From assembly GCF_029227855.1 (NCBI RefSeq), contig NZ_CP074356.1: DNA of 64,000 bases; one strand, written 5' to 3'. The stretch is from Escherichia coli (GTDB taxonomy: Bacteria; Pseudomonadota; Gammaproteobacteria; Enterobacterales; Enterobacteriaceae). The number at the start of each line of letters is the position of its first letter. Position 1 is the first letter of the stretch. The notes beneath the pieces are model-generated. The model saw only the letters and a list, made by a program, of their open reading frames with translations, was not told where the DNA came from and ran no database searches. This document shows positions 515 to 37,007 of this stretch, in pieces. Made by a program: the position numbers and the translations under genes.

Positions 515-906
515 CGATTTATTCCTGTATGTTTGCTCGCAATTTGAGCCTGGCAACACGAGGTTGCATTGCTGAATAGGGAGAGACTTCACCCTCTACA
601 GAAGTCAATGGTCGCCATCACAAAAGCGATGGGTGATGAATAACGACCATTACAGCCTCTGAATCAGTTATTAATATCGGTAGAATGACAATCGACGGCT
701 TTAGATACTGATATCTACGCATTGAACGGTATTTAACGCCGCCAGAAATGTCATTACTTTGTTAAATATAGATCACAATTTTGAAACCGCTCGGGAGATC
801 AGCGAAAACATAAGCAAAAGTGAATGTTTTAAGAACATTCCGTAAGCGGCTAATAAGGAAGGGAAATTGACAGGGCGCAGCGGCTACCGCGCCCTGGAGG
901 CAAGAA

Positions 907-2496: not shown

Positions 2497-2586
2497 AATT
2501 CTTTCTTCTTGAGTAAGCGGCATCGCGCCGCGCTTGTTGAAAACGAAAAATTGCGGCTATTTTACCCATCAACGGGGGGGAGGCAA

Positions 2587-3264
2587 TCAGTGTTTACACA
2601 GGAGCTGCTCCAGTTCGTGCAACGAAGAAACGGTCCAGGTGGGCGCGATGCCTTCTGGTTGCTCGCGATTGTGCGCATTCAGCCAGCAGGTCGCAAGCCC
2701 GGCGTTGATGCCACCGAGAATATCGGACTCAGCAGTGTCGCCAACCATCAGCACGCGTGAACGGTCAGGATTGCCCGCCTGTTCCAGCGCATAATCGAAA
2801 ATTTTCTTATTCGGTTTGGCAACGCCAACTTCTTCGGAAATCACCAGCAAATCGAAATAATCACGCAGGCCCGTGCGTTCCAGACGCACTTGCTGCAAGG
2901 CGCTAAAGCCGTTGGTGATGATGCCAATTTTAGCGTTGCCACGAATGGCGTTAAGCAGAGAAACCGCGCCCGGCAGCGGCGTACAGATTTCCGCCATCGC
3001 ATTAATAAAGGCTTCGTTGAGTTTACCCGGCTCGACGTTCAGCCGTTCGGCCCAGCTCTCAAAACGCCCGTGTTGAAGCTGTAATGAAGTGATCGCGCCG
3101 TTTTGATAATCCACCCACAGTGGCTTGTTAACGGCCTGATAGTCCTGAAAATCTTCAGCGGTAAAGGTGACGCTGTAATCAAGAAACATCCGCTGCAGGC
3201 CGGTGAATGAGTCAAATGTAAACAGCGTTTCATCGGCATCAAAGAAAATCCAGTCCCACTTCAT
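2587..3264 (-). CDS. yjjG: HAD-family pyrimidine 5'-nucleotidase YjjG
   Basis: 225 aa, [18 protein letters not shown] motif I, conserved position between prfC and rimI. Confidence 0.9.
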
Positions 3265-5440: not shown

Positions 5441-5527
5441 GCGAAGGTGGCGGAATTGGTAGACGCGCTAGCTTCAGGTGTTAGTGTCCTTACGGACGTG
5501 GGGGTTCAAGTCCCCCCCCTCGCACCA
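5441..5527 (+). tRNA. leuV: tRNA-Leu (anticodon CAG), copy 1 of 3
   Basis: 87-nt GCGAAGGTGGCGGAATTGGTAGACGCG...CCTCGCACCA with CTTCAGGT anticodon loop; gene name assigned by operon position only. Confidence 0.9.
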
Positions 5528-5555
5528 AAAACCACGTTGATATTGCTCGCACTGG

Positions 5556-5642
5556 GCGAAGGTGGCGGAATTGGTAGACGCGCTAGCTTCAGGTGTTAGT
5601 GTTCTTACGGACGTGGGGGTTCAAGTCCCCCCCCTCGCACCA
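5556..5642 (+). tRNA. leuP: tRNA-Leu (anticodon CAG), copy 2 of 3, with one C-to-T difference in the variable arm
   Basis: Same 87-nt sequence except GTTCTTACGGAC instead of GTCCTTACGGAC. Confidence 0.9.
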
Positions 5643-5676
5643 AACGAGGCGATATCAAAAAAAGTAAGATGACTGT

Positions 5677-5763
5677 GCGAAGGTGGCGGAATTGGTAGAC
5701 GCGCTAGCTTCAGGTGTTAGTGTCCTTACGGACGTGGGGGTTCAAGTCCCCCCCCTCGCACCA
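5677..5763 (+). tRNA. leuQ: tRNA-Leu (anticodon CAG), copy 3 of 3
   Basis: Identical to copy 1. Confidence 0.9.
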
Positions 5764-17120: not shown

Positions 17121-18482
17121 GTGGAAAAAGAAAATATCACCCTCGATCCGCGTTCTTCATTTACTCCATCTTCGTCGGCAGATATTCCCGTGCCACCAGA
17201 TGGATTAGTTCAACGCAGTACCCGAATTAAACGCATTCAAACCACCGCCATGTTGTTATTATTTTTTGCGGCGGTAATCAATTATCTCGACCGCAGTTCG
17301 CTGTCGGTAGCAAATTTAACGATTCGTGAAGAATTGGGATTAAGTGCCACCGAAATCGGCGCTTTGCTCTCCGTGTTTTCACTCGCTTACGGGATTGCGC
17401 AACTTCCTTGCGGCCCACTATTGGATCGTAAAGGCCCACGCCTGATGCTGGGACTGGGGATGTTCTTCTGGTCACTGTTCCAGGCCATGTCTGGCATGGT
17501 GCACAGCTTTACGCAGTTCGTGTTGGTGCGTATTGGTATGGGGATTGGTGAAGCGCCGATGAACCCATGCGGTGTAAAAGTCATTAACGACTGGTTCAAC
17601 ATCAAAGAGCGCGGACGCCCGATGGGCTTCTTCAACGCAGCTTCTACCATTGGCGTTGCCGTAAGCCCACCGATTCTTGCGGCGATGATGCTGGTGATGG
17701 GCTGGCGCGGGATGTTTATTACCATTGGTGTACTGGGGATTTTTCTCGCCATCGGCTGGTATATGCTCTATCGCAACCGCGAGCACGTAGAACTGACTGC
17801 CGTTGAACAAGCTTATCTCAATGCAGGTAGCGTCAATGCCCGCCGAGATCCGCTCAGTTTTGCCGAATGGCGCAGCCTGTTCCGTAACCGCACAATGTGG
17901 GGAATGATGCTCGGATTCAGTGGCATCAACTACACTGCGTGGCTGTATCTGGCCTGGCTTCCTGGTTACCTGCAAACAGCCTATAACCTGGATTTAAAAA
18001 GCACAGGGTTGATGGCGGCTATCCCTTTCCTGTTTGGGGCTGCCGGGATGCTGGTCAACGGTTACGTTACTGACTGGCTGGTCAAAGGGGGAATGGCTCC
18101 GATTAAAAGCCGTAAGATCTGCATTATTGCCGGGATGTTCTGTTCTGCCGCCTTTACGCTGGTCGTACCGCAAGCGACAACATCCATGACAGCGGTTCTG
18201 CTGATTGGCATGGCACTGTTTTGTATTCACTTTGCCGGAACATCCTGCTGGGGCTTGATCCACGTCGCAGTTGCTTCTCGCATGACTGCGTCGGTGGGCA
18301 GTATCCAGAACTTTGCCAGCTTCATCTGCGCCTCTTTTGCGCCGATCATTACTGGTTTTATTGTTGATACCACCCACTCATTCCGTCTGGCACTAATCAT
18401 CTGCGGTTGCGTCACCGCGGCGGGTGCACTGGCGTACATCTTCCTGGTTCGTCAGCCGATCAACGACCCGCGTAAAGATTAA
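17121..18482 (+). CDS. lgoT: MFS L-galactonate:H+ symporter
   Basis: 453 aa, 12 predicted membrane spans, GTG start. Confidence 0.8.
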   Translation: MEKENITLDPRSSFTPSSSADIPVPPDGLVQRSTRIKRIQTTAMLLLFFAAVINYLDRSSLSVANLTIREELGLSATEIGALLSVFSLAYGIAQLPCGPLLDRKGPRLMLGLGMFFWSLFQAMSGMVHSFTQFVLVRIGMGIGEAPMNPCGVKVINDWFNIKERGRPMGFFNAASTIGVAVSPPILAAMMLVMGWRGMFITIGVLGIFLAIGWYMLYRNREHVELTAVEQAYLNAGSVNARRDPLSFAEWRSLFRNRTMWGMMLGFSGINYTAWLYLAWLPGYLQTAYNLDLKSTGLMAAIPFLFGAAGMLVNGYVTDWLVKGGMAPIKSRKICIIAGMFCSAAFTLVVPQATTSMTAVLLIGMALFCIHFAGTSCWGLIHVAVASRMTASVGSIQNFASFICASFAPIITGFIVDTTHSFRLALIICGCVTAAGALAYIFLVRQPINDPRKD

Positions 18483-18530
18483 TCTCCCTATGCCCGATAA
18501 CATTTTGCTTATCGGGCATTTTTATGGCGA

Positions 18531-20195
18531 TTAAAACGTTTCCCAGTTCTCCCCGCTATCTGCCACGGCCATTTTACGCGGCGCAGCTGGCGTCACGGTT
18601 TTTACCACAGCCGATGTTTCACGCTGCTGTTGCTGCTGTTGCTGAATCCGGAACACTGCCACAGCTTCGGTCAGGCGACTGGCCTGCTCTTCCAGCGCGG
18701 CAGCGGCGGCGGCAGATTCTTCCACCAGTGCGGCGTTCTGTTGAGTTACCCGGTCCATCTCAGCAACCGCTAATCCAACCTGATCGATACCACGGCTCTG
18801 CTCATCAGAAGCAGAAGCAATTTCGCCCATAATGTCCGTCACGCGGGTCACGGCACTGACAATCTCCGCCATTGTTTCCCCTGCGCTTTCGACCAGCGTA
18901 GAGCCAACATCCACTTTCCCCACCGAGTCTTCAATCAGGCTTTTAATTTCACGAGCCGCCTGGGCGCTGCGCTGGGCCAGATTACGCACTTCTCCCGCGA
19001 CCACCGCAAAACCGCGCCCTTGCTCACCCGCACGCGCAGCCTCAACCGCCGCGTTCAAAGCCAGAATATTGGTCTGGAAGGCAATGCCGTCAATTACGCT
19101 GATAATATCGGCGATTTTCTGCGAACTGGTGGAGATATCGCGCATAGTCTGCACCACGTTATCTACCACTTTGCCGCCGCGTTGCGCCGTTTCAGAAGCA
19201 CTTAACGCCAGATGGCTGGCCTGACGCGCATTCTCGGCGTTCTGTTTCACCGTTGCGGTCAGTTGCTCCATGCTGGCTGCCGTCTCTTCCAGCGAAGCGG
19301 CCTGTTGCTCGGTGCGCGAAGAGAGATCGTTATTGCCGGTGGCGATTTCGCTGGCACCGCTATAAATGGCATTGGCCCCGTTGCGCACATCACCGACGGT
19401 ACGCATCAGCTCTCCCTGCATATGGCGCAAACTCTCTGCCAGTTGCCCCATCTCATTAGAGCCATCCACCTCAATCGGTTTCACCAGATCGCCGCCTGCA
19501 ATATGACGAATGCTGTCAATCAGGCGATTCATTGGCGCTACCAACGAGGCTTTAATACCGAACCAGACGGCGAAGATGACCGCCAGTACGACGATCATCA
19601 CGCCCACCAGGATCCACATCGCCTGGCTGTAGGAGGCATTATTATCGCTGACGGCGATATCATAGAGCCGATCGTTTTGCTCCATGTAAGCCACATACTG
19701 CTTCTCGAAACCGTCCTGATATCCCTGGGTCGGCTGATCAAAGAACTCGTTGATTTTGCCTGCACCTAACAGTTGGATCAGCTCCGCCAGCGCATTGTGA
19801 TAAATATCGTAATTACGTTTGATCTCTGCCGCTGCGGCGGTGCTCTGACGCGGGTCACGCGGCAACGCTTCGTAATCCGCCCAGTTTTTTTCCGCCTGTT
19901 TCAGCGAAATACTGGCACTCTGCATCAGCTCAGCAACGGTTGAACCGCTACCAATATTATTCTGATCCATCATGTAGCGGATACCCGCGCGGTTGAGGGT
20001 GTTACGCGTCTGCAACAACGCGACCCAGCTGCCATTCAGCGTGGATTGCTGCTGGCGAATGGTTTGTAAAACAGTGAAATTTTCTTTGTCATTCTTTAAG
20101 GCATTAAAGAACAGACCGCCTGATGTCAGTTGTAAAAGGCCAAAAACGGCCAAAACCAGCAGTAAGCTGGTCACAATTTTGATACGTTTTAACAT
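18531..20195 (-). CDS. tsr: Methyl-accepting chemotaxis protein I (serine chemoreceptor)
   Basis: 554 aa; conserved MCP signalling domain, [15 protein letters not shown]-terminal NWETF pentapeptide; QQQQQQQ run before RETS. Confidence 0.95.
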
Positions 20196-20313: not shown

Positions 20314-20760
20314 TTATTCATTATCGCCCGGGATGTCTTCTTGTCGGGAATTACCCAGAGCAATAAATTCCTCTAACAGATGGGTTAACTGTTGCATTTT
20401 CTCGGCAGTAAACTGAGCTTCAATCTGCCGATAGGCCTCTTCAATCTGTGTCTGAGCGCGGTTATACAGCGCCTGCCCCTCTTTGGTCAGCGAGATATAG
20501 AGCTTCCGCTGATCATTGATCGGCTTTAATCGCAACACTAAACCGTCGCGTTCCATCCGCGTAAGGATCCCGGTCAGGCTTGGGCGCAAAATGCAGGCGC
20601 GATACGCCAGATCGTGAAAATCCATTGATGGGCTTTCCGCCAGAATACGCACGATGCGCCACTGTTGCTCAGTCAAATTATGCCGTTTAACGATTGGGCG
20701 AAAATAACTCATCGCCGCTTCTCGCGCCTGGAGCAACGCAATGGTTAGAGAGTCGTGCAT
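20314..20760 (-). CDS. hpaR: MarR-family repressor of the hpa meta-cleavage operon
   Basis: ORF 20314..20841; the 148-aa form starts MHDSLTIALLQAREAAMSYF; divergent from hpaG. Confidence 0.85.
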   Translation of the reverse strand: MHDSLTIALLQAREAAMSYFRPIVKRHNLTEQQWRIVRILAESPSMDFHDLAYRACILRPSLTGILTRMERDGLVLRLKPINDQRKLYISLTKEGQALYNRAQTQIEEAYRQIEAQFTAEKMQQLTHLLEEFIALGNSRQEDIPGDNE

Positions 20761-21031
20761 TATCTTTCCCCTGAAAAATTCAAAATCATTAATATAGAAA
20801 CAGTTAATCATCACGTTACCGGGACTGCGCTGCCCCTGCAATTCTTCATTTTATCAAAATTGAGCATGTTTTGTTAACTTGCTGATATTTAATATTTTAT
20901 TATCTTTAAATGTAAATAGTTTGTTAATTAGATCACATTTACATCACTTACTTTTGCCAAACTACGCAATCGGGAATAAAAGTAATCATTAACATATTAA
21001 TGATTAAGATGATCGAATCCGAGGAGTGGTA

Positions 21032-22321
21032 ATGAAAGGCACTATCTTCGCCGTAGCGTTGAACCATCGCAGCCAGCTTGATGCATGGCAGGAAGCGTTC
21101 CAGCAATCCCCCTACAAAACCCCGCCTAAAACTGCGGTCTGGTTTATTAAACCGCGCAATACGGTGATTGGTTGCGGTGAACCGATTCCCTTTCCACAGG
21201 GTGAAAAAGTACTGAGCGGTGCGACTGTTGCGCTGATTGTGGGGAAAACGGCGACGAAAGTACGTGAAGAAGATGCGGCAGAGTACATCGCCGGATATGC
21301 GCTGGCTAACGACGTCAGCCTGCCGGAAGAGAGCTTTTACCGCCCGGCAATCAAAGCAAAATGTCGTGATGGATTCTGCCCCATTGGCGAAACCGTGGCT
21401 CCCAGCAATGTCGATAATCTGACTATCTATACCGAGATCAACGGGCGTCCTGCCGATCATTGGAACACCGCCGATTTACAACGTAACGCCGCGCAGTTGC
21501 TGAGCGCTCTGAGCGAATTTGCCACGCTGAATCCAGGCGATGCCATTCTGCTCGGCACGCCACAGGCGCGCGTGGAAATACAGCCAGGCGATCGCGTGCG
21601 TGTTCTCGCAGAAGGTTTCCCGCCACTGGAAAATCCGGTAGTGGACGAACGTGAAGTGACCACGCGCAAGAGCTTCCCAACGCAGCCACACCCGCACGGC
21701 ACGCTGTTTGCCCTCGGCCTGAACTACGCCGACCACGCCAGCGAACTGGAATTTAAGCCACCGGAAGAACCGCTGGTGTTCCTGAAAGCGCCGAATACCC
21801 TCACTGGCGATAACCAGACCTCCGTGCGCCCGAACAATATTGAATACATGCACTACGAAGCGGAGCTGGTGGTAGTTATTGGCAAGCAGGCGCGTAACGT
21901 CAGCGAAGCCGATGCCATGGATTATGTCGCGGGCTACACCGTGTGTAACGACTACGCCATTCGCGACTATCTGGAAAACTACTACCGCCCTAACCTGCGG
22001 GTAAAAAGCCGCGACGGACTGACGCCGATGCTTTCAACCATCGTGCCGAAAGAGGCGATCCCGGACCCGCATAATCTGACCCTTCGCACCTTCGTCAACG
22101 GCGAGTTACGCCAGCAAGGCACCACCGCCGATCTGATCTTCAGCGTGCCCTTCCTGATCGCCTACTTAAGCGAATTTATGACCCTGAATCCGGGCGACAT
22201 GATCGCCACCGGCACACCAAAAGGCTTATCTGACGTGGTGCCTGGCGATGAAGTAGTGGTGGAAGTAGAAGGCGTGGGCCGCCTGGTGAACCGAATTGTG
22301 AGTGAGGAAACAGCGAAATGA
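21032..22321 (+). CDS. hpaG: Bifunctional 5-oxopent-3-ene-1,2,5-tricarboxylate decarboxylase / 2-hydroxyhepta-2,4-diene-1,7-dioate isomerase
   Basis: About 429 aa with two tandem FAH-fold halves; first gene of the hpaGEDFHI order. Confidence 0.85.
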   Translation: MKGTIFAVALNHRSQLDAWQEAFQQSPYKTPPKTAVWFIKPRNTVIGCGEPIPFPQGEKVLSGATVALIVGKTATKVREEDAAEYIAGYALANDVSLPEESFYRPAIKAKCRDGFCPIGETVAPSNVDNLTIYTEINGRPADHWNTADLQRNAAQLLSALSEFATLNPGDAILLGTPQARVEIQPGDRVRVLAEGFPPLENPVVDEREVTTRKSFPTQPHPHGTLFALGLNYADHASELEFKPPEEPLVFLKAPNTLTGDNQTSVRPNNIEYMHYEAELVVVIGKQARNVSEADAMDYVAGYTVCNDYAIRDYLENYYRPNLRVKSRDGLTPMLSTIVPKEAIPDPHNLTLRTFVNGELRQQGTTADLIFSVPFLIAYLSEFMTLNPGDMIATGTPKGLSDVVPGDEVVVEVEGVGRLVNRIVSEETAK

Positions 22322-23784
22322 AAAAAGTAAATCATTGGATCAACGGCAAAAATGTTGCAGGTAACGACTACTTCCAGACCACCAATCCGGCAACGGGTGA
22401 AGTGCTGGCAGATGTGGCCTCCGGCGGTGAAGCGGAGATCAATCAGGCGGTAGCGGCAGCGAAAGAGGCGTTCCCGAAATGGGCCAATCTGCCGATGAAA
22501 GAGCGTGCGCGCCTGATGCGCCGTCTGGGCGATCTGATCGACCAGAACGTGCCTGAGATCGCCGCGATGGAAACCGCGGACACGGGCCTGCCGATCCATC
22601 AGACCAAAAATGTATTGATCCCACGCGCTTCTCACAACTTTGAATTTTTCGCGGAAGTCTGCCAGCAGATGAACGGCAAGACCTATCCGGTTGACGACAA
22701 GATGCTCAACTACACGCTGGTGCAACCGGTAGGCGTTTGTGCGCTGGTATCGCCGTGGAACGTGCCGTTTATGACCGCCACATGGAAGGTCGCGCCGTGT
22801 CTGGCGCTGGGCAATACCGCGGTGTTGAAAATGTCGGAACTCTCCCCGCTGACCGCTGACCGCCTGGGTGAGCTGGCGCTGGAAGCCGGTATTCCGGCGG
22901 GCGTGCTGAACGTGGTACAGGGCTACGGCGCAACCGCAGGCGATGCGCTGGTTCGTCATCATGACGTACGTGCCGTGTCGTTCACCGGCGGTACGGCCAC
23001 CGGGCGCAACATCATGAAAAACGCCGGGCTGAAAAAATACTCCATGGAACTGGGCGGTAAATCGCCGGTGCTGATTTTTGAAGATGCCGATATTGAACGC
23101 GCGCTGGACGCTGCCCTGTTCACCATCTTCTCGATCAACGGCGAGCGCTGCACCGCCGGTTCGCGCATCTTTATTCAGCAAAGCATCTACCCGGAATTCG
23201 TTAAACGCTTTGCCGAACGCGCCAACCGTCTGCGCGTGGGCGATCCGAACGATCCGAATACCCAGGTTGGGGCGCTTATCAGCCAGCAACACTGGGAAAA
23301 AGTCTCCGGCTATATTCGTCTCGGCATTGAAGAAGGCGCAACCCTGCTAGCGGGCGGTCCGGATAAACCGTCCGACCTGCCTGCGCACCTGAAAGGCGGC
23401 AACTTCCTGCGCCCAACGGTGCTGGCTGACGTTGATAACCGTATGCGCGTCGCCCAGGAAGAGATTTTCGGGCCGGTCGCCTGTCTGCTGCCGTTTAAAG
23501 ACGAAGCTGAAGGTCTGCGCCTGGCAAATGACGTGGAGTATGGCCTCGCGTCGTACATCTGGACGCAGGATGTCAGCAAAGTGTTACGCCTGGCGCGTGG
23601 CATTGAAGCAGGCATGGTGTTCGTCAACACCCAGAACGTGCGCGACCTGCGCCAGCCGTTTGGCGGCGTAAAAGCCTCCGGCACCGGGCGTGAAGGCGGT
23701 GAGTACAGCTTCGAAGTGTTCGCGGAAATGAAGAACGTCTGCATTTCCATGGGCGACCATCCAATTCCGAAATGGGGAGTCTGA
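22318..23784 (+). CDS. hpaE: 5-carboxymethyl-2-hydroxymuconate semialdehyde dehydrogenase
   Basis: 488 aa aldehyde dehydrogenase (catalytic Cys region GERCTAGSR); start overlaps hpaG stop. Confidence 0.9.
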   Translation: MKKVNHWINGKNVAGNDYFQTTNPATGEVLADVASGGEAEINQAVAAAKEAFPKWANLPMKERARLMRRLGDLIDQNVPEIAAMETADTGLPIHQTKNVLIPRASHNFEFFAEVCQQMNGKTYPVDDKMLNYTLVQPVGVCALVSPWNVPFMTATWKVAPCLALGNTAVLKMSELSPLTADRLGELALEAGIPAGVLNVVQGYGATAGDALVRHHDVRAVSFTGGTATGRNIMKNAGLKKYSMELGGKSPVLIFEDADIERALDAALFTIFSINGERCTAGSRIFIQQSIYPEFVKRFAERANRLRVGDPNDPNTQVGALISQQHWEKVSGYIRLGIEEGATLLAGGPDKPSDLPAHLKGGNFLRPTVLADVDNRMRVAQEEIFGPVACLLPFKDEAEGLRLANDVEYGLASYIWTQDVSKVLRLARGIEAGMVFVNTQNVRDLRQPFGGVKASGTGREGGEYSFEVFAEMKNVCISMGDHPIPKWGV

Positions 23785-23785
23785 T

Positions 23786-24637
23786 ATGGGTAAGTTAGCG
23801 TTAGCCGCCAAAATCACGCACGTACCGTCGATGTATCTCTCTGAACTACCAGGGAAAAACCACGGTTGCCGCCAGGGTGCGATCGACGGGCATAAAGAGA
23901 TCAGCAAGCGTTGCCGGGAAATGGGCGTCGATACCATTATCGTTTTCGATACTCACTGGCTGGTCAACAGTGCTTATCACATCAACTGTGCAGACCATTT
24001 TGAAGGCGTCTACACCAGCAACGAGCTGCCGCATTTTATTCGTGACATGACCTACAACTACGAGGGCAACCCGGAGTTGGGGCAGCTTATTGCCGATGAA
24101 GCCTTAAAACTCGGCGTGCGGGCAAAAGCGCACAACATTCCCAGCCTGAAACTGGAATACGGCACGCTGGTGCCAATGCGCTACATGAATGAAGACAAGC
24201 ACTTCAAAGTGGTCTCCATTTCGGCTTTCTGCACGGTTCACGATTTTGCCGACAGCCGCAAGCTTGGCGAAGCGATTTTGAAAGCAATCGAACAGTACGA
24301 CGGCACCGTGGCGGTCCTTGCCAGCGGTTCGTTATCGCACCGCTTTATTGACGATCAGCGTGCGGAAGAAGGGATGAACAGCTACACCCGCGAGTTCGAC
24401 CGCCAGATGGACGAGCGCGTGGTGAAGCTGTGGCGCGAAGGCCAGTTCAAAGAGTTCTGCAATATGCTGCCGGAGTACGCCGACTACTGCTACGGCGAAG
24501 GCAATATGCACGACACGGTGATGCTGCTGGGGATGCTCGGCTGGGATAAATACGACGGCAAGGTGGAGTTTATCACCGAGCTGTTCCCAAGCTCCGGTAC
24601 TGGTCAGGTTAACGCTGTTTTCCCGCTTCCCGCGTAA
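23786..24637 (+). CDS. hpaD: 3,4-dihydroxyphenylacetate 2,3-dioxygenase (extradiol)
   Basis: 283 aa, LigB-type extradiol dioxygenase, cluster context. Confidence 0.85.
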   Translation: MGKLALAAKITHVPSMYLSELPGKNHGCRQGAIDGHKEISKRCREMGVDTIIVFDTHWLVNSAYHINCADHFEGVYTSNELPHFIRDMTYNYEGNPELGQLIADEALKLGVRAKAHNIPSLKLEYGTLVPMRYMNEDKHFKVVSISAFCTVHDFADSRKLGEAILKAIEQYDGTVAVLASGSLSHRFIDDQRAEEGMNSYTREFDRQMDERVVKLWREGQFKEFCNMLPEYADYCYGEGNMHDTVMLLGMLGWDKYDGKVEFITELFPSSGTGQVNAVFPLPA

Positions 24638-24646
24638 GGACGTTTT

Positions 24647-25027
24647 ATGCCGCACTTTATCGTTGAATGTACTGAAAATATTCGTGAAGAAGCCCGCTTA
24701 CCTGAGCTGTTTGCCAGTGTTAACACTGCACTGGCGGCGACGGGGATTTTTCCGCTTGGGGGAATACGTAGCCGGGCGCACTGGATCGATACCTGGCAAA
24801 TGGCTGATGGCAAGCACGATTACGCCTTTGTGCATATGACGCTAAAAATCGGCAGCGGGCGCAGTCTGGAAAGCCGTCAGGAAGTGGGCGAAATGGTGTT
24901 TGATCTGATTAAAACGCACTTCGCCTCACTGATGGAGAGCCGTTACCTGGCGCTTTCATTTGAGATTGCAGAGCTGCACCCGACGTTGAATTTCAAACAG
25001 AACAACGTACACGCGTTGTTTAAATAA
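24647..25027 (+). CDS. hpaF: 5-carboxymethyl-2-hydroxymuconate isomerase
   Basis: 126 aa [16 protein letters not shown]... Confidence 0.85.
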
Positions 25028-25094
25028 ATTTGTACCAGCTTCCAGGCCGGATGATAAGGCGCAGCCGCATCCGGCAATGCCACAGGATATCGCC

Positions 25095-25898
25095 ATGTTC
25101 GATAAACACACCCACACCCTGATCGCCCAGCGTCTGGATCAGGCAGAAAAACAGCGCGAACAGATCCGCGCGATCTCGCTGGATTACCCGGAGATCACCA
25201 TCGAAGATGCCTACGCCGTACAGCGCGAATGGGTCCGCCTGAAAATTGCCGAAGGCCGTACGCTGAAAGGCCACAAAATCGGCCTGACCTCGAAAGCGAT
25301 GCAGGCCAGCTCACAAATCAGCGAACCGGATTACGGCGCGCTGCTGGACGACATGTTCTTCCACGATGGCAGCGATATCCCGACCGATCGCTTTATCGTG
25401 CCGCGCATTGAAGTGGAGCTGGCTTTCGTGCTGGCAAAACCGCTGCGTGGGCCAAACTGCACGCTGTTCGACGTTTACAACGCCACGGACTATGTGATCC
25501 CGGCGCTGGAGCTGATCGACGCTCGCTGCCACAACATCGATCCGGAAACCCAGCGCCCGCGTAAAGTGTTCGACACCATTTCTGATAACGCCGCCAATGC
25601 CGGGGTGATCCTCGGTGGTCGTCCCATTAAGCCCGATGAGTTGGATCTGCGTTGGATCTCCGCCCTGATGTATCGTAATGGCGTGATTGAAGAAACTGGC
25701 GTCGCCGCTGGCGTGCTGAATCACCCGGCAAACGGCGTGGCCTGGCTGGCGAACAAACTCGCACCGTATGACGTACAACTGGAAGCCGGGCAAATCATTC
25801 TCGGCGGTTCGTTTACCCGCCCGGTTCCGGCGCGTAAGGGCGACACCTTCCACGTCGATTACGGCAACATGGGCTCCATTAGCTGCCGCTTTGTTTAA
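25095..25898 (+). CDS. hpaH: 2-oxo-hept-4-ene-1,7-dioate hydratase
   Basis: ORF 25077..25898; the 267-aa form starts [20 protein letters not shown]. Confidence 0.85.
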
Positions 25899-25908
25899 GG
25901 AGAGAACG

Positions 25909-26697
25909 ATGGAAAACAGTTTTAAAGCGGCGCTGAAAGCAGGCCGCCCGCAGATCGGATTATGGCTGGGGCTAAGTAGCAGCTACAGCGCAGAGTTACT
26001 GGCCGGAGCAGGATTCGACTGGTTATTGATCGACGGTGAGCACGCGCCGAATAACGTGCAAACCGTGCTCACCCAGCTACAGGCGATTGCGCCCTACCCC
26101 AGCCAGCCGGTAGTACGTCCATCGTGGAACGATCCGGTGCAAATCAAACAACTGCTGGACGTCGGCACACAAACCTTACTGGTGCCGATGGTACAAAACG
26201 CCGACGAAGCCCGTGAAGCGGTACGCGCCACCCGTTATCCCCCCGCCGGTATTCGCGGTGTGGGCAGTGCGCTGGCTCGCGCCTCGCGCTGGAATCGCAT
26301 TCCTGATTACCTGCAAAAAGCCAACGATCAAATGTGCGTGCTGGTGCAAATCGAAACGCGTGAGGCAATGAAGAACTTACCGCAGATTCTGGACGTGGAA
26401 GGGGTCGACGGCGTGTTTATCGGCCCGGCGGATCTGAGCGCCGATATGGGTTATGCCGGTAATCCGCAGCACCCGGAAGTACAGGTCGCCATTGAGCAGG
26501 CGATCGTGCAGATCCGCGAAGCGGGCAAAGCGCCGGGGATCCTGATCGCCAATGAGCAACTGGCAAAACGCTATCTGGAACTGGGCGCGCTATTTGTCGC
26601 CGTCGGCGTTGACACCACCCTGCTCGCCCGCGCCGCCGAAGCGCTGGCAGCACGGTTTGGCGCGCAGGCCACGACCGTTAAGCCCGGCGTGTATTAA
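25909..26697 (+). CDS. hpaI: 4-hydroxy-2-oxo-heptane-1,7-dioate aldolase
   Basis: 262 aa from [22 protein letters not shown]; class II aldolase family. Confidence 0.85.
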
Positions 26698-26806
26698 TGT
26701 CGATCCGGCCTACACGCGCACTAAACCATAGGCTGGATAAGACGTTTACGCCGCATCCGCCATAAACCTTGTCGTACCCTACAAAAATCCCATTAGAGGA
26801 AGAAAA

Positions 26807-28183
26807 ATGAGCGACACCTCACCTGCCATACCGGAGAGTATCGATCCGGCGAATCAGCATAAAGCGCTGACTACCGGACAACAGGCGGTTATTAAGAAGC
26901 TGTTTCGCCGCCTGATCGTCTTTCTGTTCGTGCTGTTTATCTTCTCGTTCCTTGATCGCATCAACATCGGCTTTGCCGGGCTAACGATGGGACGCGACCT
27001 CGGTCTGAGCGCCACCATGTTTGGCCTCGCCACCACCCTGTTCTATGCCGCTTATGTCATCTTCGGCATTCCCAGCAACATTATGCTGAGTATTGTCGGT
27101 GCGCGGCGCTGGATCGCCACCATCATGGTGCTCTGGGGCATCGCCTCTACGGCCACCATGTTTGCCACTGGCCCCACCAGCTTATACGTACTGCGTATAC
27201 TGGTTGGCATTACCGAAGCCGGCTTTCTGCCTGGCATTCTGCTGTATTTAACCTTCTGGTTTCCGGCCTATTTCCGCGCCCGTGCCAACGCCTTGTTTAT
27301 GGTAGCAATGCCGGTAACGACAGCGCTGGGATCGATCGTTTCCGGCTACATTTTGTCGCTGGATGGCGTAATGGCATTAAAAGGCTGGCAGTGGCTGTTT
27401 TTGCTGGAAGGCTTCCCGTCGGTATTACTCGGCGTCATGGTGTGGTTCTGGCTTGATGACTCACCGGACAAAGCTAAGTGGCTGACGAAAGAAGACAAAA
27501 AATGCCTGCAAGAGATGATGGATAACGATCGTCTGACGCTGGTTCAGCCAGAGGGAGCCATCAGTCACCACGCCATGCAACAACGCAGCATGTGGCGGGA
27601 GATCTTCACTCCGGTGGTGATGATGTATACCCTGGCGTATTTCTGCCTGACCAACACACTTAGTGCAATCAGCATCTGGACACCGCAGATCCTACAAAGC
27701 TTTAATCAGGGCAGCAGTAATATCACCATCGGCCTGCTGGCCGCCGTACCGCAGATTTGTACCATTCTCGGGATGATCTACTGGAGCCGTCACTCAGATC
27801 GCCGCCAGGAACGAAGGCATCACACCGCCCTTCCTTATTTGTTCGCTGCCGCTGGTTGGTTACTGGCTTCGGCAACTGATCACAACATGATCCAGATGCT
27901 GGGGATCATTATGGCTTCGACCGGATCATTCAGCGCAATGGCGATTTTCTGGACAACACCGGATCAGTCCATCAGCCTGCGGGCACGAGCGATCGGTATT
28001 GCGGTGATCAACGCCACTGGCAACATTGGTTCAGCGTTAAGTCCGTTTATGATCGGCTGGTTGAAAGATCTGACCGGCAGCTTTAACAGTGGATTGTGGT
28101 TTGTTGCCGCGCTGCTGGTGATTGGTGCGGGGATTATCTGGGCAATTCCAATGCAGTCCTCCCGTCCGCGAGCGACCCCGTAA
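26807..28183 (+). CDS. hpaX: MFS 4-hydroxyphenylacetate transporter
   Basis: 458 aa, 12 predicted membrane spans, between hpaI and hpaA. Confidence 0.85.
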   Translation: MSDTSPAIPESIDPANQHKALTTGQQAVIKKLFRRLIVFLFVLFIFSFLDRINIGFAGLTMGRDLGLSATMFGLATTLFYAAYVIFGIPSNIMLSIVGARRWIATIMVLWGIASTATMFATGPTSLYVLRILVGITEAGFLPGILLYLTFWFPAYFRARANALFMVAMPVTTALGSIVSGYILSLDGVMALKGWQWLFLLEGFPSVLLGVMVWFWLDDSPDKAKWLTKEDKKCLQEMMDNDRLTLVQPEGAISHHAMQQRSMWREIFTPVVMMYTLAYFCLTNTLSAISIWTPQILQSFNQGSSNITIGLLAAVPQICTILGMIYWSRHSDRRQERRHHTALPYLFAAAGWLLASATDHNMIQMLGIIMASTGSFSAMAIFWTTPDQSISLRARAIGIAVINATGNIGSALSPFMIGWLKDLTGSFNSGLWFVAALLVIGAGIIWAIPMQSSRPRATP

Positions 28184-28192
28184 GGAACGACG

Positions 28193-29083
28193 ATGTGTGA
28201 CCGTCAGATTGCCAATATTGATATCAGCAAAGAGTACGATGAAAGCCTGGGCACGGACGATGTGCATTATCAGTCCTTCGCCCGCATGGCGGCCTTTTTT
28301 GGCCGCCATATGCTGCCACATCGCCACGAACAGTACTTTCAGATGCATTTCCTCAATAGCGGACAGATTGAGCTACAGCTTGACGATCATCGCTACTCGG
28401 TGGAAGCGCCCCTGTTTGTCCTGACGCCGCCGTCAGTACCTCATGCGTTTATTACGGAGTCTGACGCCGACGGTCATGTGTTGACGGTACGGGAAGATCT
28501 GATCTGGCCCCTGCTGGAAGTTCTTTATCCGGGCACTCGGGAAACCTTCGGCCTGCCGGGGATTTGCCTGTCACTGGCAGATAAACCCGACGAACTGGCG
28601 GCGCTGGAACACTATTGGCAACTGATAGAGCGGGAATCGGTGGAACAACTGCCTGGACGGGAACACACCCTGACGCTACTGGCACAGGCAGTGTTCACCC
28701 TACTGCTGCGTAACGCAAAACTCGACGACCATGCCGCCAGCGGAATGCGCGGAGAATTAAAACTGTTCCAGCGTTTTCATATGCTGATTGAAAGCCATTT
28801 TCACCAGCACTGGACAGTACCGGATTACGCTAACGAACTGCATATCACCGAATCACGCCTCACGGACATCTGCCGCCGCTTTGCCAACCGTCCGCCAAAA
28901 CGGTTGATTTTCGACAGGCAGCTGCGAGAAGCCAAGCGGCTGCTGCTGTTTTCTGATAACGCCGTGAACAATATTGCCTGGCAACTCGGTTTTAAGGATC
29001 CGGCTTATTTTGCGCGCTTTTTTAATCGTTTAGTCGGTTGCTCGCCCAGTGCTTACCGTGCCAAAAAAGTACCTGTGACGTGA
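28193..29083 (+). CDS. hpaA: AraC/XylS-family activator of hpaBC
   Basis: 296 aa with C-terminal AraC-type HTH (NIAWQLGFKDPAYFARFF). Confidence 0.85.
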   Translation: MCDRQIANIDISKEYDESLGTDDVHYQSFARMAAFFGRHMLPHRHEQYFQMHFLNSGQIELQLDDHRYSVEAPLFVLTPPSVPHAFITESDADGHVLTVREDLIWPLLEVLYPGTRETFGLPGICLSLADKPDELAALEHYWQLIERESVEQLPGREHTLTLLAQAVFTLLLRNAKLDDHAASGMRGELKLFQRFHMLIESHFHQHWTVPDYANELHITESRLTDICRRFANRPPKRLIFDRQLREAKRLLLFSDNAVNNIAWQLGFKDPAYFARFFNRLVGCSPSAYRAKKVPVT

Positions 29084-29333
29084 AAATCCCTTAGCCTTAA
29101 CGGGAAACCAGGCATCACCTGCTATTCCTCTTTCTCCGCCTGGAGCAAGGGGATTTAGTAACGTCAAAAATAGCTAAAAGCGACCTCGATCACAAAACCG
29201 TACCCGACCTGAAAAGTACCAGCCATTGTCCCAAAAGTGTCTTCCCGTAATCGCCCCTGCAAGCTTCAATTGAATAACAAAAACAACACACAAAATTAAC
29301 AATCGTATTCCGATTAATACTGTAGAGGTCGAC

Positions 29334-30896
29334 ATGAAACCAGAAGATTTCCGCGCCAGTACCCAACGTCCGTTCACCGGGGAAGAGTATCTGAAAAGCC
29401 TGCAGGATGGTCGCGAGATCTATATCTATGGCGAGCGAGTGAAAGACGTCACCACTCATCCGGCATTTCGTAATGCGGCAGCGTCTGTTGCCCAACTGTA
29501 CGACGCGCTGCACAAACCGGAGATGCAGGACTCTCTGTGTTGGAACACCGACACCGGCAGCGGCGGCTATACCCATAAATTCTTCCGCGTGGCGAAAAGT
29601 GCCGACGACCTGCGCCAGCAACGCGACGCCATCGCTGAGTGGTCACGCCTGAGCTATGGCTGGATGGGCCGTACCCCAGACTACAAGGCTGCTTTCGGTT
29701 GCGCACTGGGCGCGAATCCGGGCTTTTACGGTCAGTTCGAGCAGAACGCCCGTAACTGGTACACCCGTATTCAGGAAACTGGCCTCTACTTTAACCACGC
29801 GATTGTTAACCCACCGATCGATCGTCATTTGCCGACCGATAAAGTGAAAGACGTTTACATCAAGCTGGAAAAAGAGACTGACGCCGGGATTATCGTCAGC
29901 GGTGCGAAAGTGGTTGCCACCAACTCGGCGCTGACTCACTACAACATGATTGGCTTCGGCTCGGCACAAGTGATGGGCGAAAACCCGGACTTCGCACTGA
30001 TGTTCGTTGCGCCAATGGATGCCGATGGCGTGAAATTAATCTCCCGCGCCTCTTATGAGATGGTCGCGGGTGCTACCGGCTCCCCGTACGACTACCCGCT
30101 CTCCAGCCGCTTCGATGAGAACGATGCGATTCTGGTGATGGATAACGTGCTGATCCCATGGGAAAACGTGCTGATCTACCGCGATTTTGATCGCTGCCGT
30201 CGCTGGACGATGGAAGGCGGTTTCGCCCGTATGTATCCGCTGCAAGCCTGTGTACGCCTGGCAGTGAAACTCGACTTCATTACGGCACTGCTGAAAAAAT
30301 CACTCGAATGTACCGGCACCCTGGAGTTCCGTGGTGTGCAGGCCGATCTCGGTGAAGTGGTGGCGTGGCGCAACACCTTCTGGGCATTGAGTGACTCGAT
30401 GTGTTCAGAAGCGACACCATGGGTCAACGGTGCTTATTTACCGGATCATGCCGCACTGCAAACCTATCGCGTACTGGCACCAATGGCCTACGCGAAGATC
30501 AAAAACATTATCGAACGCAACGTTACCAGTGGCCTGATCTATCTCCCTTCCAGTGCCCGTGACCTGAACAATCCGCAGATCGACCAGTATCTGGCGAAGT
30601 ATGTGCGCGGTTCGAATGGTATGGATCACGTCCAGCGCATCAAGATCCTCAAACTGATGTGGGATGCCATTGGCAGCGAGTTTGGTGGTCGTCACGAGCT
30701 GTATGAAATCAACTACTCCGGTAGCCAGGATGAGATTCGCCTGCAGTGTCTGCGCCAGGCACAAAGCTCCGGCAATATGGACAAGATGATGGCGATGGTT
30801 GATCGCTGCCTGTCGGAATACGACCAGAACGGCTGGACTGTGCCGCACCTGCACAACAACGACGATATCAACATGCTGGATAAGCTGCTGAAATAA
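29334..30896 (+). CDS. hpaB: 4-hydroxyphenylacetate 3-monooxygenase, oxygenase component
   Basis: 520 aa MKPEDFRASTQRPFTGEEYLKSLQDGREIYIYGERVKDVTTHPAFRN. Confidence 0.9.
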   Translation: MKPEDFRASTQRPFTGEEYLKSLQDGREIYIYGERVKDVTTHPAFRNAAASVAQLYDALHKPEMQDSLCWNTDTGSGGYTHKFFRVAKSADDLRQQRDAIAEWSRLSYGWMGRTPDYKAAFGCALGANPGFYGQFEQNARNWYTRIQETGLYFNHAIVNPPIDRHLPTDKVKDVYIKLEKETDAGIIVSGAKVVATNSALTHYNMIGFGSAQVMGENPDFALMFVAPMDADGVKLISRASYEMVAGATGSPYDYPLSSRFDENDAILVMDNVLIPWENVLIYRDFDRCRRWTMEGGFARMYPLQACVRLAVKLDFITALLKKSLECTGTLEFRGVQADLGEVVAWRNTFWALSDSMCSEATPWVNGAYLPDHAALQTYRVLAPMAYAKIKNIIERNVTSGLIYLPSSARDLNNPQIDQYLAKYVRGSNGMDHVQRIKILKLMWDAIGSEFGGRHELYEINYSGSQDEIRLQCLRQAQSSGNMDKMMAMVDRCLSEYDQNGWTVPHLHNNDDINMLDKLLK

Positions 30897-30913
30897 CGCA
30901 GCAGGAGGTTAAG

Positions 30914-31426
30914 ATGCAATTAGATGAACAACGCCTGCGCTTTCGTGACGCGATGGCCAGCCTGTCGGCAGCGGTAAATATTATCACCACCGAGGGCGAC
31001 GCCGGACAATGCGGGATTACGGCAACGGCCGTCTGCTCGGTCACGGATACACCACCATCGCTGATGGTGTGCATTAACGCCAACAGTGCGATGAACCCGG
31101 TTTTTCAGGGCAACGGCAAGTTGTGCGTCAACGTCCTCAACCATGAGCAGGAACTGATGGCACGCCACTTCGCGGGCATGACGGGCATGGCGATGGAAGA
31201 GCGTTTTAGCCTCTCATGCTGGCAAAAAGGTCCGCTGGCGCAGCCGGTGCTGAAAGGTTCGCTGGCCAGTCTTGAAGGTGAGATCCGCGATGTGCAGGCA
31301 ATTGGCACACATCTGGTGTATCTGGTGGAGATTAAAAACATCATCCTCAGTGCAGAAGGTCACGGACTTATCTACTTTAAACGCCGTTTCCATCCGGTGA
31401 TGCTGGAAATGGAAGCTGCGATTTAA
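30914..31426 (+). CDS. hpaC: 4-hydroxyphenylacetate 3-monooxygenase, flavin reductase component
   Basis: 170 aa MQLDEQRLRFRDAMASLSAAVNIITTEG. Confidence 0.9.
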   Translation: MQLDEQRLRFRDAMASLSAAVNIITTEGDAGQCGITATAVCSVTDTPPSLMVCINANSAMNPVFQGNGKLCVNVLNHEQELMARHFAGMTGMAMEERFSLSCWQKGPLAQPVLKGSLASLEGEIRDVQAIGTHLVYLVEIKNIILSAEGHGLIYFKRRFHPVMLEMEAAI

Positions 31427-31432
31427 GCTCCA

Positions 31433-31468
31433 GCCCCTTCACGCATTCGTCGAAGGGGCATTTTTATT
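31433..31468 (+). terminator. Rho-independent terminator after hpaC
   Basis: ccccttcacgcattcgtcgaagggg hairpin followed by catttttatt. Confidence 0.6.
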
Positions 31469-34231: not shown

Positions 34232-35189
34232 CATGAACCCGATTGCAGTTACCCTACTCACCGGTTTTTTAGGCGCGGGCAAAACCACCCTGCTGCGCCA
34301 TATTCTTAACGAACAACACGGCTACAAGATTGCCGTGATTGAAAACGAATTCGGCGAAGTCTCCGTTGATGATCAACTGATTGGCGACCGCGCCACGCAG
34401 ATCAAAACGCTGACCAACGGCTGCATCTGCTGTTCGCGCTCCAACGAGCTGGAAGACGCACTACTCGACCTGCTGGATAATCTCGACAAGGGCAATATTC
34501 AGTTCGACCGTCTGGTCATTGAATGCACCGGCATGGCCGATCCCGGCCCGATTATTCAGACCTTTTTCTCCCATGAGATTTTATGCCAGCGTTACCTGCT
34601 GGACGGTGTGATTGCGCTGGTGGATGCGGTACATGCCGACGAGCAGATGAACCAGTTCACCATCGCCCAGTCCCAGGTTGGCTACGCCGACCGTATTCTG
34701 CTGACCAAAACCGACGTCGCAGGCGAAGCAGAAAAACTGCGTGAACGCCTGGCGCGCATCAACGCCCGTGCACCGGTCTACACCGTCACCCACGGCGACA
34801 TCGACCTGGGCCTGCTGTTCAACACCAACGGTTTTATGCTGGAAGAGAACGTCGTCAGCACCAAACCGCGTTTCCACTTTATCGCGGATAAACAAAACGA
34901 TATTTCGTCGATTGTGGTAGAACTGGATTACCCGGTAGATATCAGCGAAGTTTCCCGGGTGATGGAAAACCTGCTTCTGGAATCGGCAGATAAACTGCTG
35001 CGTTACAAAGGGATGCTGTGGATTGACGGCGAACCTAACCGCCTGCTGTTCCAGGGCGTCCAGCGCCTCTACAGCGCCGACTGGGACCGCCCGTGGGGCG
35101 ATGAAAAACCACATAGCACAATGGTGTTTATCGGGATTCAGTTGCCGGAGGAAGAGATTCGGGCAGCGTTTGCGGGGTTGAGGAAGTAA
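34232..35189 (+). CDS. yjiA: CobW/G3E-family GTPase YjiA
   Basis: 318 aa with P-loop GFLGAGKTTLL and CICC metal-binding motif. Confidence 0.9.
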
Positions 35190-35200
35190 TTTTGGATGAT

Positions 35201-35234
35201 GGCCGCCATGTGGCGGCCTGAATTATTTTTTGTT
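35201..35234 (+). terminator. Terminator hairpin between convergent yjiA and brnA
   Basis: ggccgccatgtggcggcc inverted repeat followed by tgaattattttttg. Confidence 0.5.
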
Positions 35235-35525
35235 CTGATCGCGCAGCATCGCTTCACGTAAAATTGCGTTCAGGCGAGTTTGATAGCCTTTACCTGGTCG
35301 CTTCAACCATTCCATCACATCAGCATCAATACGCACCGAAGCCTGAGTTTTCAATGGCCGATAAAACTTACCGCGTTCGGCGTTAGACCATTGCTCATCG
35401 CTGGAAGGTGGGATATCACTGTAATCAATATCTTCGTCGGATTTATTCGTCAGCGCCTTCAGTTCGGCCTCATGCTGCACATCGAGTGTAGAGGAGGTCC
35501 CTCGTTTATGTTTAACCATGCTCAT
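35223..35525 (-). CDS. brnA: BrnA-like antitoxin (DUF4415-type small DNA-binding protein)
   Basis: ORF 35223..35666; about 100 aa from MSMVKHKRG...; C-terminus ...RIDADVMEWLKRPGKGYQTRLNAILREAM matches the BrnA family; start overlaps brnT stop. Confidence 0.7.
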   Translation of the reverse strand: MSMVKHKRGTSSTLDVQHEAELKALTNKSDEDIDYSDIPPSSDEQWSNAERGKFYRPLKTQASVRIDADVMEWLKRPGKGYQTRLNAILREAMLRDQNKK

Positions 35526-35808
35526 AGCGATTCCTCTCTTTACGATCTGCTTTTCGTGCACTGATGATTCGAATAATTTCATTTCCGCTTTCGAAACGGA
35601 TGGTATGCGCAACCAGAATAACCACGATGCCGTAAACCAGGCCGATTGTCTGCCAGCGATACTCACCGTTTTCTATGCGTTCTTGCTGTGACAAATGTTG
35701 TGGATCATCAAACAATAACACCGCATCTTCAAAGCGGATGCCATGTTTCACCCGATTACTTTTGGCCTTGTTTTCATCCCATTCAAACTCCATTGGCATA
35801 ATTGCCAT
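35512..35808 (-). CDS. brnT: BrnT-like toxin (DUF497, RelE-fold ribonuclease)
   Basis: ORF 35512..35826 (TTG start); from first ATG: MAIMPMEFEWDENKAKSNRVKHGIRFEDA...IRIISARKADRKERNRYE, the BrnT signature. Confidence 0.7.
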   Translation of the reverse strand: MAIMPMEFEWDENKAKSNRVKHGIRFEDAVLLFDDPQHLSQQERIENGEYRWQTIGLVYGIVVILVAHTIRFESGNEIIRIISARKADRKERNRYEHG

Positions 35809-35997
35809 CCCTAATTGTATATACAAAAATGTATCTACAATTATTCTGCAATTATAGCGTTGATGTTGGAAATAGCATCACGTTTCGAATAATCAACCAT
35901 GAAATTGACAATGAGTAAGTTGGACTTGATTCATCCAATAGAATTTCTCGCCTGACATGGCACACTAAACACCTCGCTGTCGGGTAATGACTCCAAC

Positions 35998-36500
35998 TTA
36001 CTGATAGTGTTTTATGTTCAGATAATGCCCGATGACCTTGTCATGCAGCTCCACCGATTTTGAGAACGACAGTGACTTCCGTCCCAGCCTTGCCAGATGT
36101 TGTCTCAGATTCAGATTATGTCGCTCAATGCGCTGAGTGTAACGCTTGCTGATAACGTGCAGCTTTCCCTTCAGGCGTGATTCATACAGCGGCCAGCCAT
36201 CCGTCATCTATACTACGACCTCAAAGGCCGACAGCAGGCTCAGAAGACGCTCCAGTGTGGCCAGAGTGCGTTCACCGAAGACGTGGCCACAACCGTCTTC
36301 CGAAGCCTGTCATACGCGTAAAACAGCCAGCGCTGGCGCGATTTAGCCCCGACATAGCCCCACTGTTCGTCCATTTCCGCGCAGATAATCACATCACTGC
36401 CCGGTTGTATGCGCGAGGTTACCGACTGCGGCCTGAGTTTTTTAAGTGACGTAAAACCGTGTTGAGGCCAACGCCCATAATGCGTGCACTGGCGCGACAT
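35998..36500 (-). pseudogene. insB: IS1 insB frame, disrupted (1-nt deletion relative to copy 2 gives a premature stop; split into two ORFs)
   Basis: Track ORFs 36240..36500 and 35998..36207; protein diverges from InsB after ...[12 protein letters not shown] and stops; direct comparison with copy 2 shows a 1-nt gap. Confidence 0.6.
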
Positions 36501-36694
36501 CCGACGCCATTCATGGCCATATCAATGATTTTCTGGTGCGTACCGGGCTGAGAGGCGGTGTAAGTGAACTGCAGTTGCCATGTTTTACGGCAATGAGAGC
36601 AGAGATAGCGCTGATGTCCGGCAGTGCTTTTGCCGTTACGCACCACGCCTTCAGTAGCGGAGCAGGAAGGACATCTGATGGAAATGGAAGCCAC
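36419..36694 (-). CDS. insA: IS1 InsA
   Basis: 91 aa [43 protein letters not shown]. Confidence 0.9.
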
Positions 36695-37007
36695 GCAAGC
36701 ACCTTAAAATCACCATCATACACTAAATCAGTAAGTTGGCAGCATTACCAAATTTTAATTACACTTAAGGTGTATATTTTCTATGCAAGCCATCAATTAA
36801 AGAGGTGTAATGTGCTGATGACTATTTGTAATCGTTATACATTCTGACCTGGAGTCAGAAGGTATTTCTCTGTCTGTGTATTCGCAGGCAGTGTGGTTGA
36901 TTACATGAAATTCAGTACATTTGTCCTTCTCGCCTGCCTTTCGTCATTACCGACGGTATTGAATTTCGTTTTCCCCATTGGGTTCTCCGGACAAGGAGTT
37001 GTTTGTT

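Follow-up and report, generated by a model that had tools for sequence, protein, structure and literature searches.

The tsr gene and its surroundings

The window, i.e., the whole 64,000-nucleotide stretch of Escherichia coli DNA analysed here, contains on its minus strand an open reading frame for a protein of 554 amino acids at 18531..20195, with the stop codon included. This reading frame matched NCBIfam PRK15041, the equivalog profile for the serine chemoreceptor Tsr, with 1225 bits against a cutoff of 947, and its residues 1–554 were placed on positions 1–554 of the profile, which is itself 554 positions long. The domains PF02203, PF00672 and PF00015 (TarH, HAMP and MCP signal) are recorded for database proteins that are 100% identical to the window protein, and the C-terminus is NWETF (residues 550–554). 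By every criterion that can be tested from sequence, the gene is that of Tsr (methyl-accepting chemotaxis protein I), in agreement with the preliminary description of this DNA. A tsr annotation is present in 5,385 complete E. coli genomes. An ORF of 102 amino acids on the plus strand (18524..18832) overlaps the glutamine tract described below; it is wholly contained in tsr and was taken as spurious.

The neighbours of tsr differ among the strains. The downstream neighbour (window 17121–18482) is lgoT in the window, K-12 and HS, and TRAP-transporter permease genes are found there in LF82, RM14723 and GN05064. On the upstream side (window 20314–31434), hpaR and the hpa operon are present in the window, HS and APEC O78, and a MurR/RpiR regulator gene in 2013C-4282 and TW10598. 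The window is collinear with the closest complete genome, that of TUM1886, only over 2432–35189, with 99.1% identity. TUM1886 has a block of about 13.7 kb between yjiA and mdtM with DUF262, type I restriction-modification hsdRMS, symE and GmrSD genes; this block is missing from the window, where the interval is no longer than about 1.8 kb (35189–36978). A tyrosine-recombinase gene is also found in TUM1886 on the upstream side of yjjG, at the place where the first 2.4 kb of the window differ, and three tandem tRNA-Leu(CAG) genes are located at 5441–5763 of the window. Three tsr matches were on records classed as plasmids, and one candidate among them, NZ_AP023206.1 (404 kb, strain TUM18781), holds a full tsr; this record, which its size places among the non-chromosome records, could be a piece of a chromosome or else a secondary replicon of very large size.

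The glutamine tract and its place in Tsr

The plus strand of the window at 18624–18644 is ctgctgttgctgctgttgctg, which is read in frame on the minus strand as CAG CAA CAG CAG CAA CAG CAG and encodes Q518–Q524. The seven-Q run, its frame and its position are exactly as first described. The tract (18624..18644, minus strand) is a perfect tandem repeat of a 9-bp unit, (CAGCAACAG)x2 + CAG. The first unit, CAG CAA CAG, comprises codons 518–520 (18636..18644), the second, identical unit comprises codons 521–523 (18627..18635), and codon 524, CAG, is a partial unit (18624..18626). An alignment of the window with S17-1 and MG1655 delimited the second unit, and K-12 has a single unit where the window has units 1 and 2. 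Tandem Repeats Finder reported the tract at 18623–18644 with period 9, 2.4 copies, 100% matches and a score of 44. Two complete and identical units thus directly follow each other, as expected of a coding tandem repeat. By simple arithmetic, the expectation of a seven-Q run is about 1e-5 per 64-kb window at about 4.4% Q; the run is therefore far above chance, and the duplicated 9-bp unit explains it.

The location of the tract relative to the structured part of Tsr was examined from several sides. Residue 517 has been taken as the end of the conserved part of Tsr (PMC4692393), and the tether was counted from I517, with 30 residues in K-12 (PMC10561060). Among the structure chains, 1QU7 ends at residue 520 and the chain sequence of the cryo-EM entry 8C5V at 516; of two further entries, the crystallised construct 3ZX6 has the run of seven glutamines and 6S1K that of K-12. 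Across 30 aligned orthologs, no invariant column was found between F515 and N550 and no conservation except K541, while the pentapeptide N550, W551, E552, T553 and F554 was invariant; its codons, which specify the CheR/CheB docking site, are at 18534..18548 on the minus strand. An AlphaFold model made from the same alignment has a confident bundle helix ending at 512 and confident structure up to about 512–519, with pLDDT values below 50 throughout the C-terminal residues 520–554. The segment I517–E549 (18549..18647, minus strand), as bounded by the literature, the alignment and AlphaFold, is thus a tether of 33 residues with the properties of a pentapeptide tether, non-conserved and of low confidence or disordered, and ending in NWETF. 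From the chain ends, the literature boundary, the alignment and the model together, the Q-run is the first stretch of this tether and abuts the bundle directly after I517, not in the middle of the tether. The preliminary description had put the run in the flexible tether before NWETF; it does lie in the non-conserved segment, and its place there is the extreme N-terminal edge.

This position next to the bundle raises the reading that the Q-run has a structural role, in which it extends the C-terminal bundle helix and its length alters the stability of the helix end, the packing or the signalling bias, with the effect exerted by the helix end instead of the reach of the tether. Polyglutamine next to coiled coils can extend helices, the 1QU7 chain takes in the first three glutamines (to residue 520), AlphaFold draws a short helix over 519–527, so that the run may have some helical propensity, and the QQxQQ pattern directly after FRI is conserved in related genera. 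However, this short helix is of low confidence (pLDDT below 50) and lies apart from the bundle helix that ends at 512, the 8C5V chain sequence stops at 516, and work on single-chain Tsr treats everything after 517 as non-conserved and removable (PMC4692393). Moreover, the run lengths of 4, 7, 10 and 13 residues described in the next section would not be equally acceptable in a helix that needs to pack. We consider a structural role very unlikely.

Two further kinds of length variation were seen in tsr. One is a second in-frame variable tract, a run of six alanines at window 18696–18715 (Tsr residues 495–500), reported by TRF with period 6 as GCGGCA x3.2, which is presumably between the last two methylation sites of Tsr. 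A4 was found in TUM14664 (552 aa) and P0093, and A5 in P0064 (553 aa). Because the alanine run is inside the helical bundle, a deletion of one or two residues could shift the helix register and may outweigh the Q-run in its effect. The other is found in the E. coli Tsr variants P0028 (570 aa) and P0086 (568 aa), which are longer through internal insertions of 16 and 14 residues. The insertion points follow residue 231, in the HAMP region, and residue 295, in the first methylation helix; from their sequences these insertions look like tandem duplications.

Length alleles across E. coli and their origin

The 3' part of tsr was searched against 5,426 complete E. coli genomes, and a 111-nt query with the window tract matched 5,382 of them. 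The alleles were counted with allele-specific queries, for which the E-value limits were chosen to pass ungapped matches only. The percentages given here are not population frequencies, since the RefSeq complete set over-represents K-12/B laboratory derivatives and outbreak clones. Seven codons, recognised by the lack of a 9-bp gap against the 7Q query, were found in 4,059 genomes (75.4%), four glutamines in 1,211 (22.5%), ten in 72 (1.3%; HS, LF82, NRG 857C and O104:H21 94-3024 among them) and thirteen in three (0.06%; RM14723, A13 and Z1323HEC0355). An interrupted seven-codon tract, CAG CAA GAG CAG CAA CGC CAG (QQEQQRQ), was present in 40 genomes (0.7%), and a 1Q allele in none of the 5,382 complete genomes. 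The seven-codon state is therefore the majority, with about 76% of the 5,382 genomes. The allele counts total 5,385 against 5,382 genomes matched, an agreement within 0.1%.

MG1655, its derivative S17-1, W3110 and BL21 all have CAG CAA CAG CAG, which encodes four glutamines in a Tsr of 551 amino acids. The shorter run of K-12 and the length of 551 against 554 amino acids, which the preliminary description had given, were thus borne out, and the difference between the window and K-12 in the alignment is 9 bp, in frame and exactly one unit. K-12 is without the seven-Q run, and the tract is polymorphic in the species, as had been proposed. All 24 tsr genes that were compared have the form (CAGCAACAG)n+CAG with n=1–4, or a point variant of it, and the tract lengths of 12, 21, 30 and 39 nt give full-length, in-frame Tsr proteins of 551, 554, 557 and 560 amino acids, respectively.

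Intermediate lengths were searched with 8Q, 6Q and 5Q queries, and no genome among the 5,382 complete E. coli genomes matched at 99% or more; the genomes that matched these queries best had 7Q or 4Q tracts, and a gap of 3 bp was needed to align them. The tract is therefore polymorphic in 9-bp steps rather than 3-bp steps. It had been called a trinucleotide (CAG/CAA) microsatellite at first, and this assignment was rejected, because the repeating unit and the length step are both 9 bp: the period-3 description in Tandem Repeats Finder is weaker (78% matches, score 30), and the alleles 5Q, 6Q and 8Q that a 3-bp step would give were not detected in the genomes searched, nor in the 120 metagenome contigs described next.

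The same alleles were found outside the finished genomes. A metagenome sample was made from the first 120 contigs that matched the flanks with any 9–39 nt between them, many of which are human-gut contigs by name. Seven codons were found in 87, four in 29 and ten in 4 of the 120 matches listed, and no other tract length was present among them. In the clustered protein database, nearly all of the top 120 matches were 7Q, in a ranking that favours the query's own allele. The point variants QQQQQHQ, QQQQQQH and QQEQQRQ were spotted there. QQQQQHQ, in which the penultimate codon of the tract (window 18627–18629) is changed from CAG to CAT (Gln to His), was also seen in 9 of the 120 metagenome contigs listed.

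Short repeats can be mis-assembled in principle, and the length alleles might accordingly be ascribed to collapse or expansion of the repeat in the assemblies. Nothing specific in the present data points to such an error. The tract is only 12–39 nt, far shorter than single reads, and the alleles are reproducible over thousands of finished genomes, including independent assemblies of one strain: HS is 10Q in four of four records, LF82 is 10Q in two of two, and many K-12 records are all 4Q. The metagenome contigs, too, show the same alleles. We regard the probability of a sequencing or assembly artefact as negligible.

The direction of the length changes was judged from related bacteria. The segment corresponding to the tract is I-QQDQQKA-R in Leclercia, I-QQEQQKA-R in Enterobacter cloacae, I-QHDQQRA-R in Citrobacter werkmanii and I-QQAQQRQ-H in L031, a divergent (cryptic) Escherichia lineage that is 95% identical. 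The Tsr proteins of all four align with the window protein over this segment without a gap, and the close Tsr orthologs have 553–557 amino acids. O6:H16 strains and TW10598 are among the E. coli lineages that keep the interrupted QQEQQRQ, and the Fitch root state on the tsr gene tree is 7. Because the cryptic Escherichia lineage, Leclercia, Enterobacter and Citrobacter share a seven-residue QQxQQ[KR]x segment, seven codons is, on this sequence comparison, the length from which the others derive, and the allele of the window is the common one; the outgroups behind this polarity are one divergent Escherichia lineage and members of other genera, as the 80 loci used lacked Salmonella, E. albertii and E. 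fergusonii. The 4Q tract of K-12 is therefore a derived 9-bp deletion. The preliminary description had proposed a 9-bp in-frame expansion in the window; the arithmetic stands and the direction is reversed, since seven codons is both the majority and the outgroup length and 4Q is derived. The perfect repeat could have been formed from the interrupted one by three point substitutions, or by deletion of a unit followed by re-duplication.

We then consider how often the length has changed. A neighbour-joining tree was made from 24 tsr genes with the tract removed; it is an unbootstrapped tree of a 1.6-kb gene, with sequences picked so that rare alleles were represented. The length alleles 4, 7, 10 and 13 are mixed with one another in each of the two main groups of this tree (lgoT-adjacent and TRAP-transporter-adjacent), and Fitch parsimony on the unbootstrapped gene tree gave at least 11 length changes among the 23 chosen E. 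coli sequences. The flanks of 118 sequences were compared over 990 nt, with 900 nt taken on the upstream side of the tract and 90 nt on the downstream side, and two haplotypes, each identical over this span, were found to carry two lengths each. The Nissle-type haplotype has eight 7Q and one 4Q, and the 94-3024 haplotype has one 10Q and one 7Q. The members of these identical-flank pairs differ a little beyond the 990 nt, with 4 mismatches over 2,265 nt and 7 over 3,480 nt, and are therefore not strictly one clone. The His (CAT) marker codon is present in the 4-, 7- and 10-codon alleles. In addition, the interrupted repeat has seven codons in 40 of 40 genomes, which possibly belong to one clade. 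Taken together, the tree, the flank haplotypes, the His marker and the interrupted repeats favour slippage at the perfect repeat, by which units were added and removed time and again.

The scattered alleles on the gene tree could also have a further source in intragenic recombination, and in one reading of this kind 4Q, 10Q and 13Q each arose only once or twice, in a few ancient events, and were spread by homologous recombination of the 3' end of tsr, so that the tract would not be unusually mutable. E. coli recombines, the 3' tail of tsr is a mosaic (the QQEQQRQ allele has 15/42 of the differences from the window in the last ~110 nt), and the neighbours of tsr, lgoT versus TRAP-transporter genes, vary by lineage. 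The lengths differ, however, on near-identical local haplotypes, with identical 990-nt flanks in the two cases above, the His-marked unit is found with 4, 7 and 10 codons, and 13Q and 10Q alleles are 5–8 SNPs apart inside one clade. Furthermore, seven codons in all 40 interrupted-repeat genomes stands against 24% deviating among the perfect-repeat genomes, in a comparison that is not phylogenetically independent. We therefore consider a few ancient events with spread by recombination to be unlikely, and infer slippage as the mechanism and recurrence, rather than recombination, as the origin of the scattered alleles.

Expected effect on the tether and comparison with known systems

From these observations, we propose that an older Q-rich segment of seven residues (QQxQQ[KR]x) turned, in mainstream E. 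coli, into the perfect repeat (CAGCAACAG)2+CAG. With two identical units in place, replication slippage or unequal exchange would then add or remove whole units, giving Tsr proteins of 551, 554, 557 and 560 amino acids with 4, 7, 10 and 13 Q. The window carries the common 7Q tract of ancestral length, and K-12 a deletion of one unit. Each unit adds three uncharged residues to a flexible tether of 30–39 residues. The reading frame, the bundle, the charge pattern of the linker and the pentapeptide are unaffected, and on these grounds the variation in length is most likely tolerated and close to neutral. As a whole, an in-frame repeat-number polymorphism that is nearly neutral, arises by unit slippage and has an ancestral length of seven is the explanation that we consider probable.

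The near-neutrality of the Q-run alleles is an extrapolation from the related receptor series of Tar. With Tar tethers of 22, 29, 34 and 46 residues, each residue moves the peak of tethered CheR by 0.128 +/- 0.048 nm, from a base of about 6 nm (PMC10561060). By this measure, one Tsr unit would give about 0.38 nm of extra reach on about 10 nm, that is, about 4%. Functional receptors with the pentapeptide have linkers of 29–91 residues that share a charge pattern only and no conserved sequence (bioRxiv 10.1101/2024.03.07.583918), and glutamine residues are uncharged, so the charge pattern of the linker should be undisturbed across the 4/7/10/13-Q series. The length of the Q-run most likely changes the reach of the adaptation enzymes little, if at all.

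An adaptive role, in line with the suggestion in the preliminary description that the tract length could tune the reach of the adaptation enzymes, was also weighed, in which the number of units is selected as a tuning knob because the length of the tether sets the reach of CheR and CheB, and strains thereby fit the speed or precision of serine adaptation, or the size of the assistance neighbourhood, to their niche. The tether length of Tar measurably shifts the CheR concentration profile and the precision of adaptation (PMC10561060). The four length alleles persist, with 4Q in as many as 22.5% of the genomes of the RefSeq complete set, the length changes appear recurrent, and the 7Q tether of 33 residues is close to the 34 of Tar, while that of K-12 has 30. 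Against this, the estimated shift per unit, about 0.38 nm on a reach of about 10 nm, is far below the effect of the experimental changes of 5–12 residues, and natural functional linkers already span 29–91 residues. Mutation pressure alone predicts recurrent change at a perfect repeat, and no clear ecological division is seen among the hosts and sources listed, with humans, livestock, water and soil all represented in 4Q, 7Q and 10Q. Selection of the unit number as a tuning knob is accordingly improbable in our judgement. The more specific proposal, that E. coli keeps a series of Tsr tethers of 30, 33, 36 and 39 residues by means of a mutable 9-bp repeat and that this series is selected for the speed and precision of serine adaptation, is likewise improbable. 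If it were true, the K-12 reference would be a short-tether minority type with adaptation kinetics unlike those of most E. coli.

In the body of literature covered by the search, no paper describing polymorphism of the Tsr Q-run was found; the only match to the peptide was the tether table in PMC10561060. The tract is a minor example of a well-known kind of variation, with no new system or mechanism. It illustrates on a small scale how a Q-rich segment, once turned into a perfect repeat, begins to vary in length.

Among known systems, the tract may be compared with the phase-variable contingency loci, with which it shares repeat-driven mutation, presumably by slipped-strand mispairing. The unit of the Tsr tract is, in contrast, a multiple of 3, and the alleles are all full-length, so that it would be a modulator of length at most and no on/off switch. 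Because every allele stays in frame (Tsr of 551, 554, 557 or 560 aa), assignment to the phase-variable loci was rejected. The bacterial in-frame coding VNTRs used in MLVA are more similar, in that they are perfect short intragenic repeats with whole-unit alleles and apparent homoplasy; the Tsr tract differs from them in its very low copy number (1.3–4.3) and in having four alleles only. To our knowledge, it is not among the published E. coli MLVA loci.

The engineered Tar tether series is the only quantitative model for a tether-length change of this kind (PMC10561060), and in both cases it is the number of residues between the end of the bundle and NWETF that is altered. The Tar series consists of laboratory constructs in another receptor, with changes of 5–12 residues near the pentapeptide end, whereas the Tsr alleles are natural and change in steps of three glutamines at the bundle-proximal end. 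The natural 4/7/10/13-Q series offers ready-made alleles for testing the tethered-enzyme model of adaptation in Tsr.

The closest comparison is with Tsr of K-12 (551 aa), which has the same gene, the same domain order (TarH, HAMP and MCP signal) and the same pentapeptide, and a tether sequence equal to that of the window apart from the Q-run and G548 of the window (E545 in K-12). The K-12 protein differs in having four glutamines and a tether of 30 residues from a minority, derived allele, against seven glutamines and 33 residues in the window. Quantitative studies of Tsr have nearly all been made with the K-12 protein, and thus with a tether that is three residues below the ancestral length and below that of about three quarters of sequenced E. 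coli. The practical value of the tract for chemotaxis researchers lies in these two points, that the K-12 reference is a short derived minority allele and that a natural four-step tether series exists.
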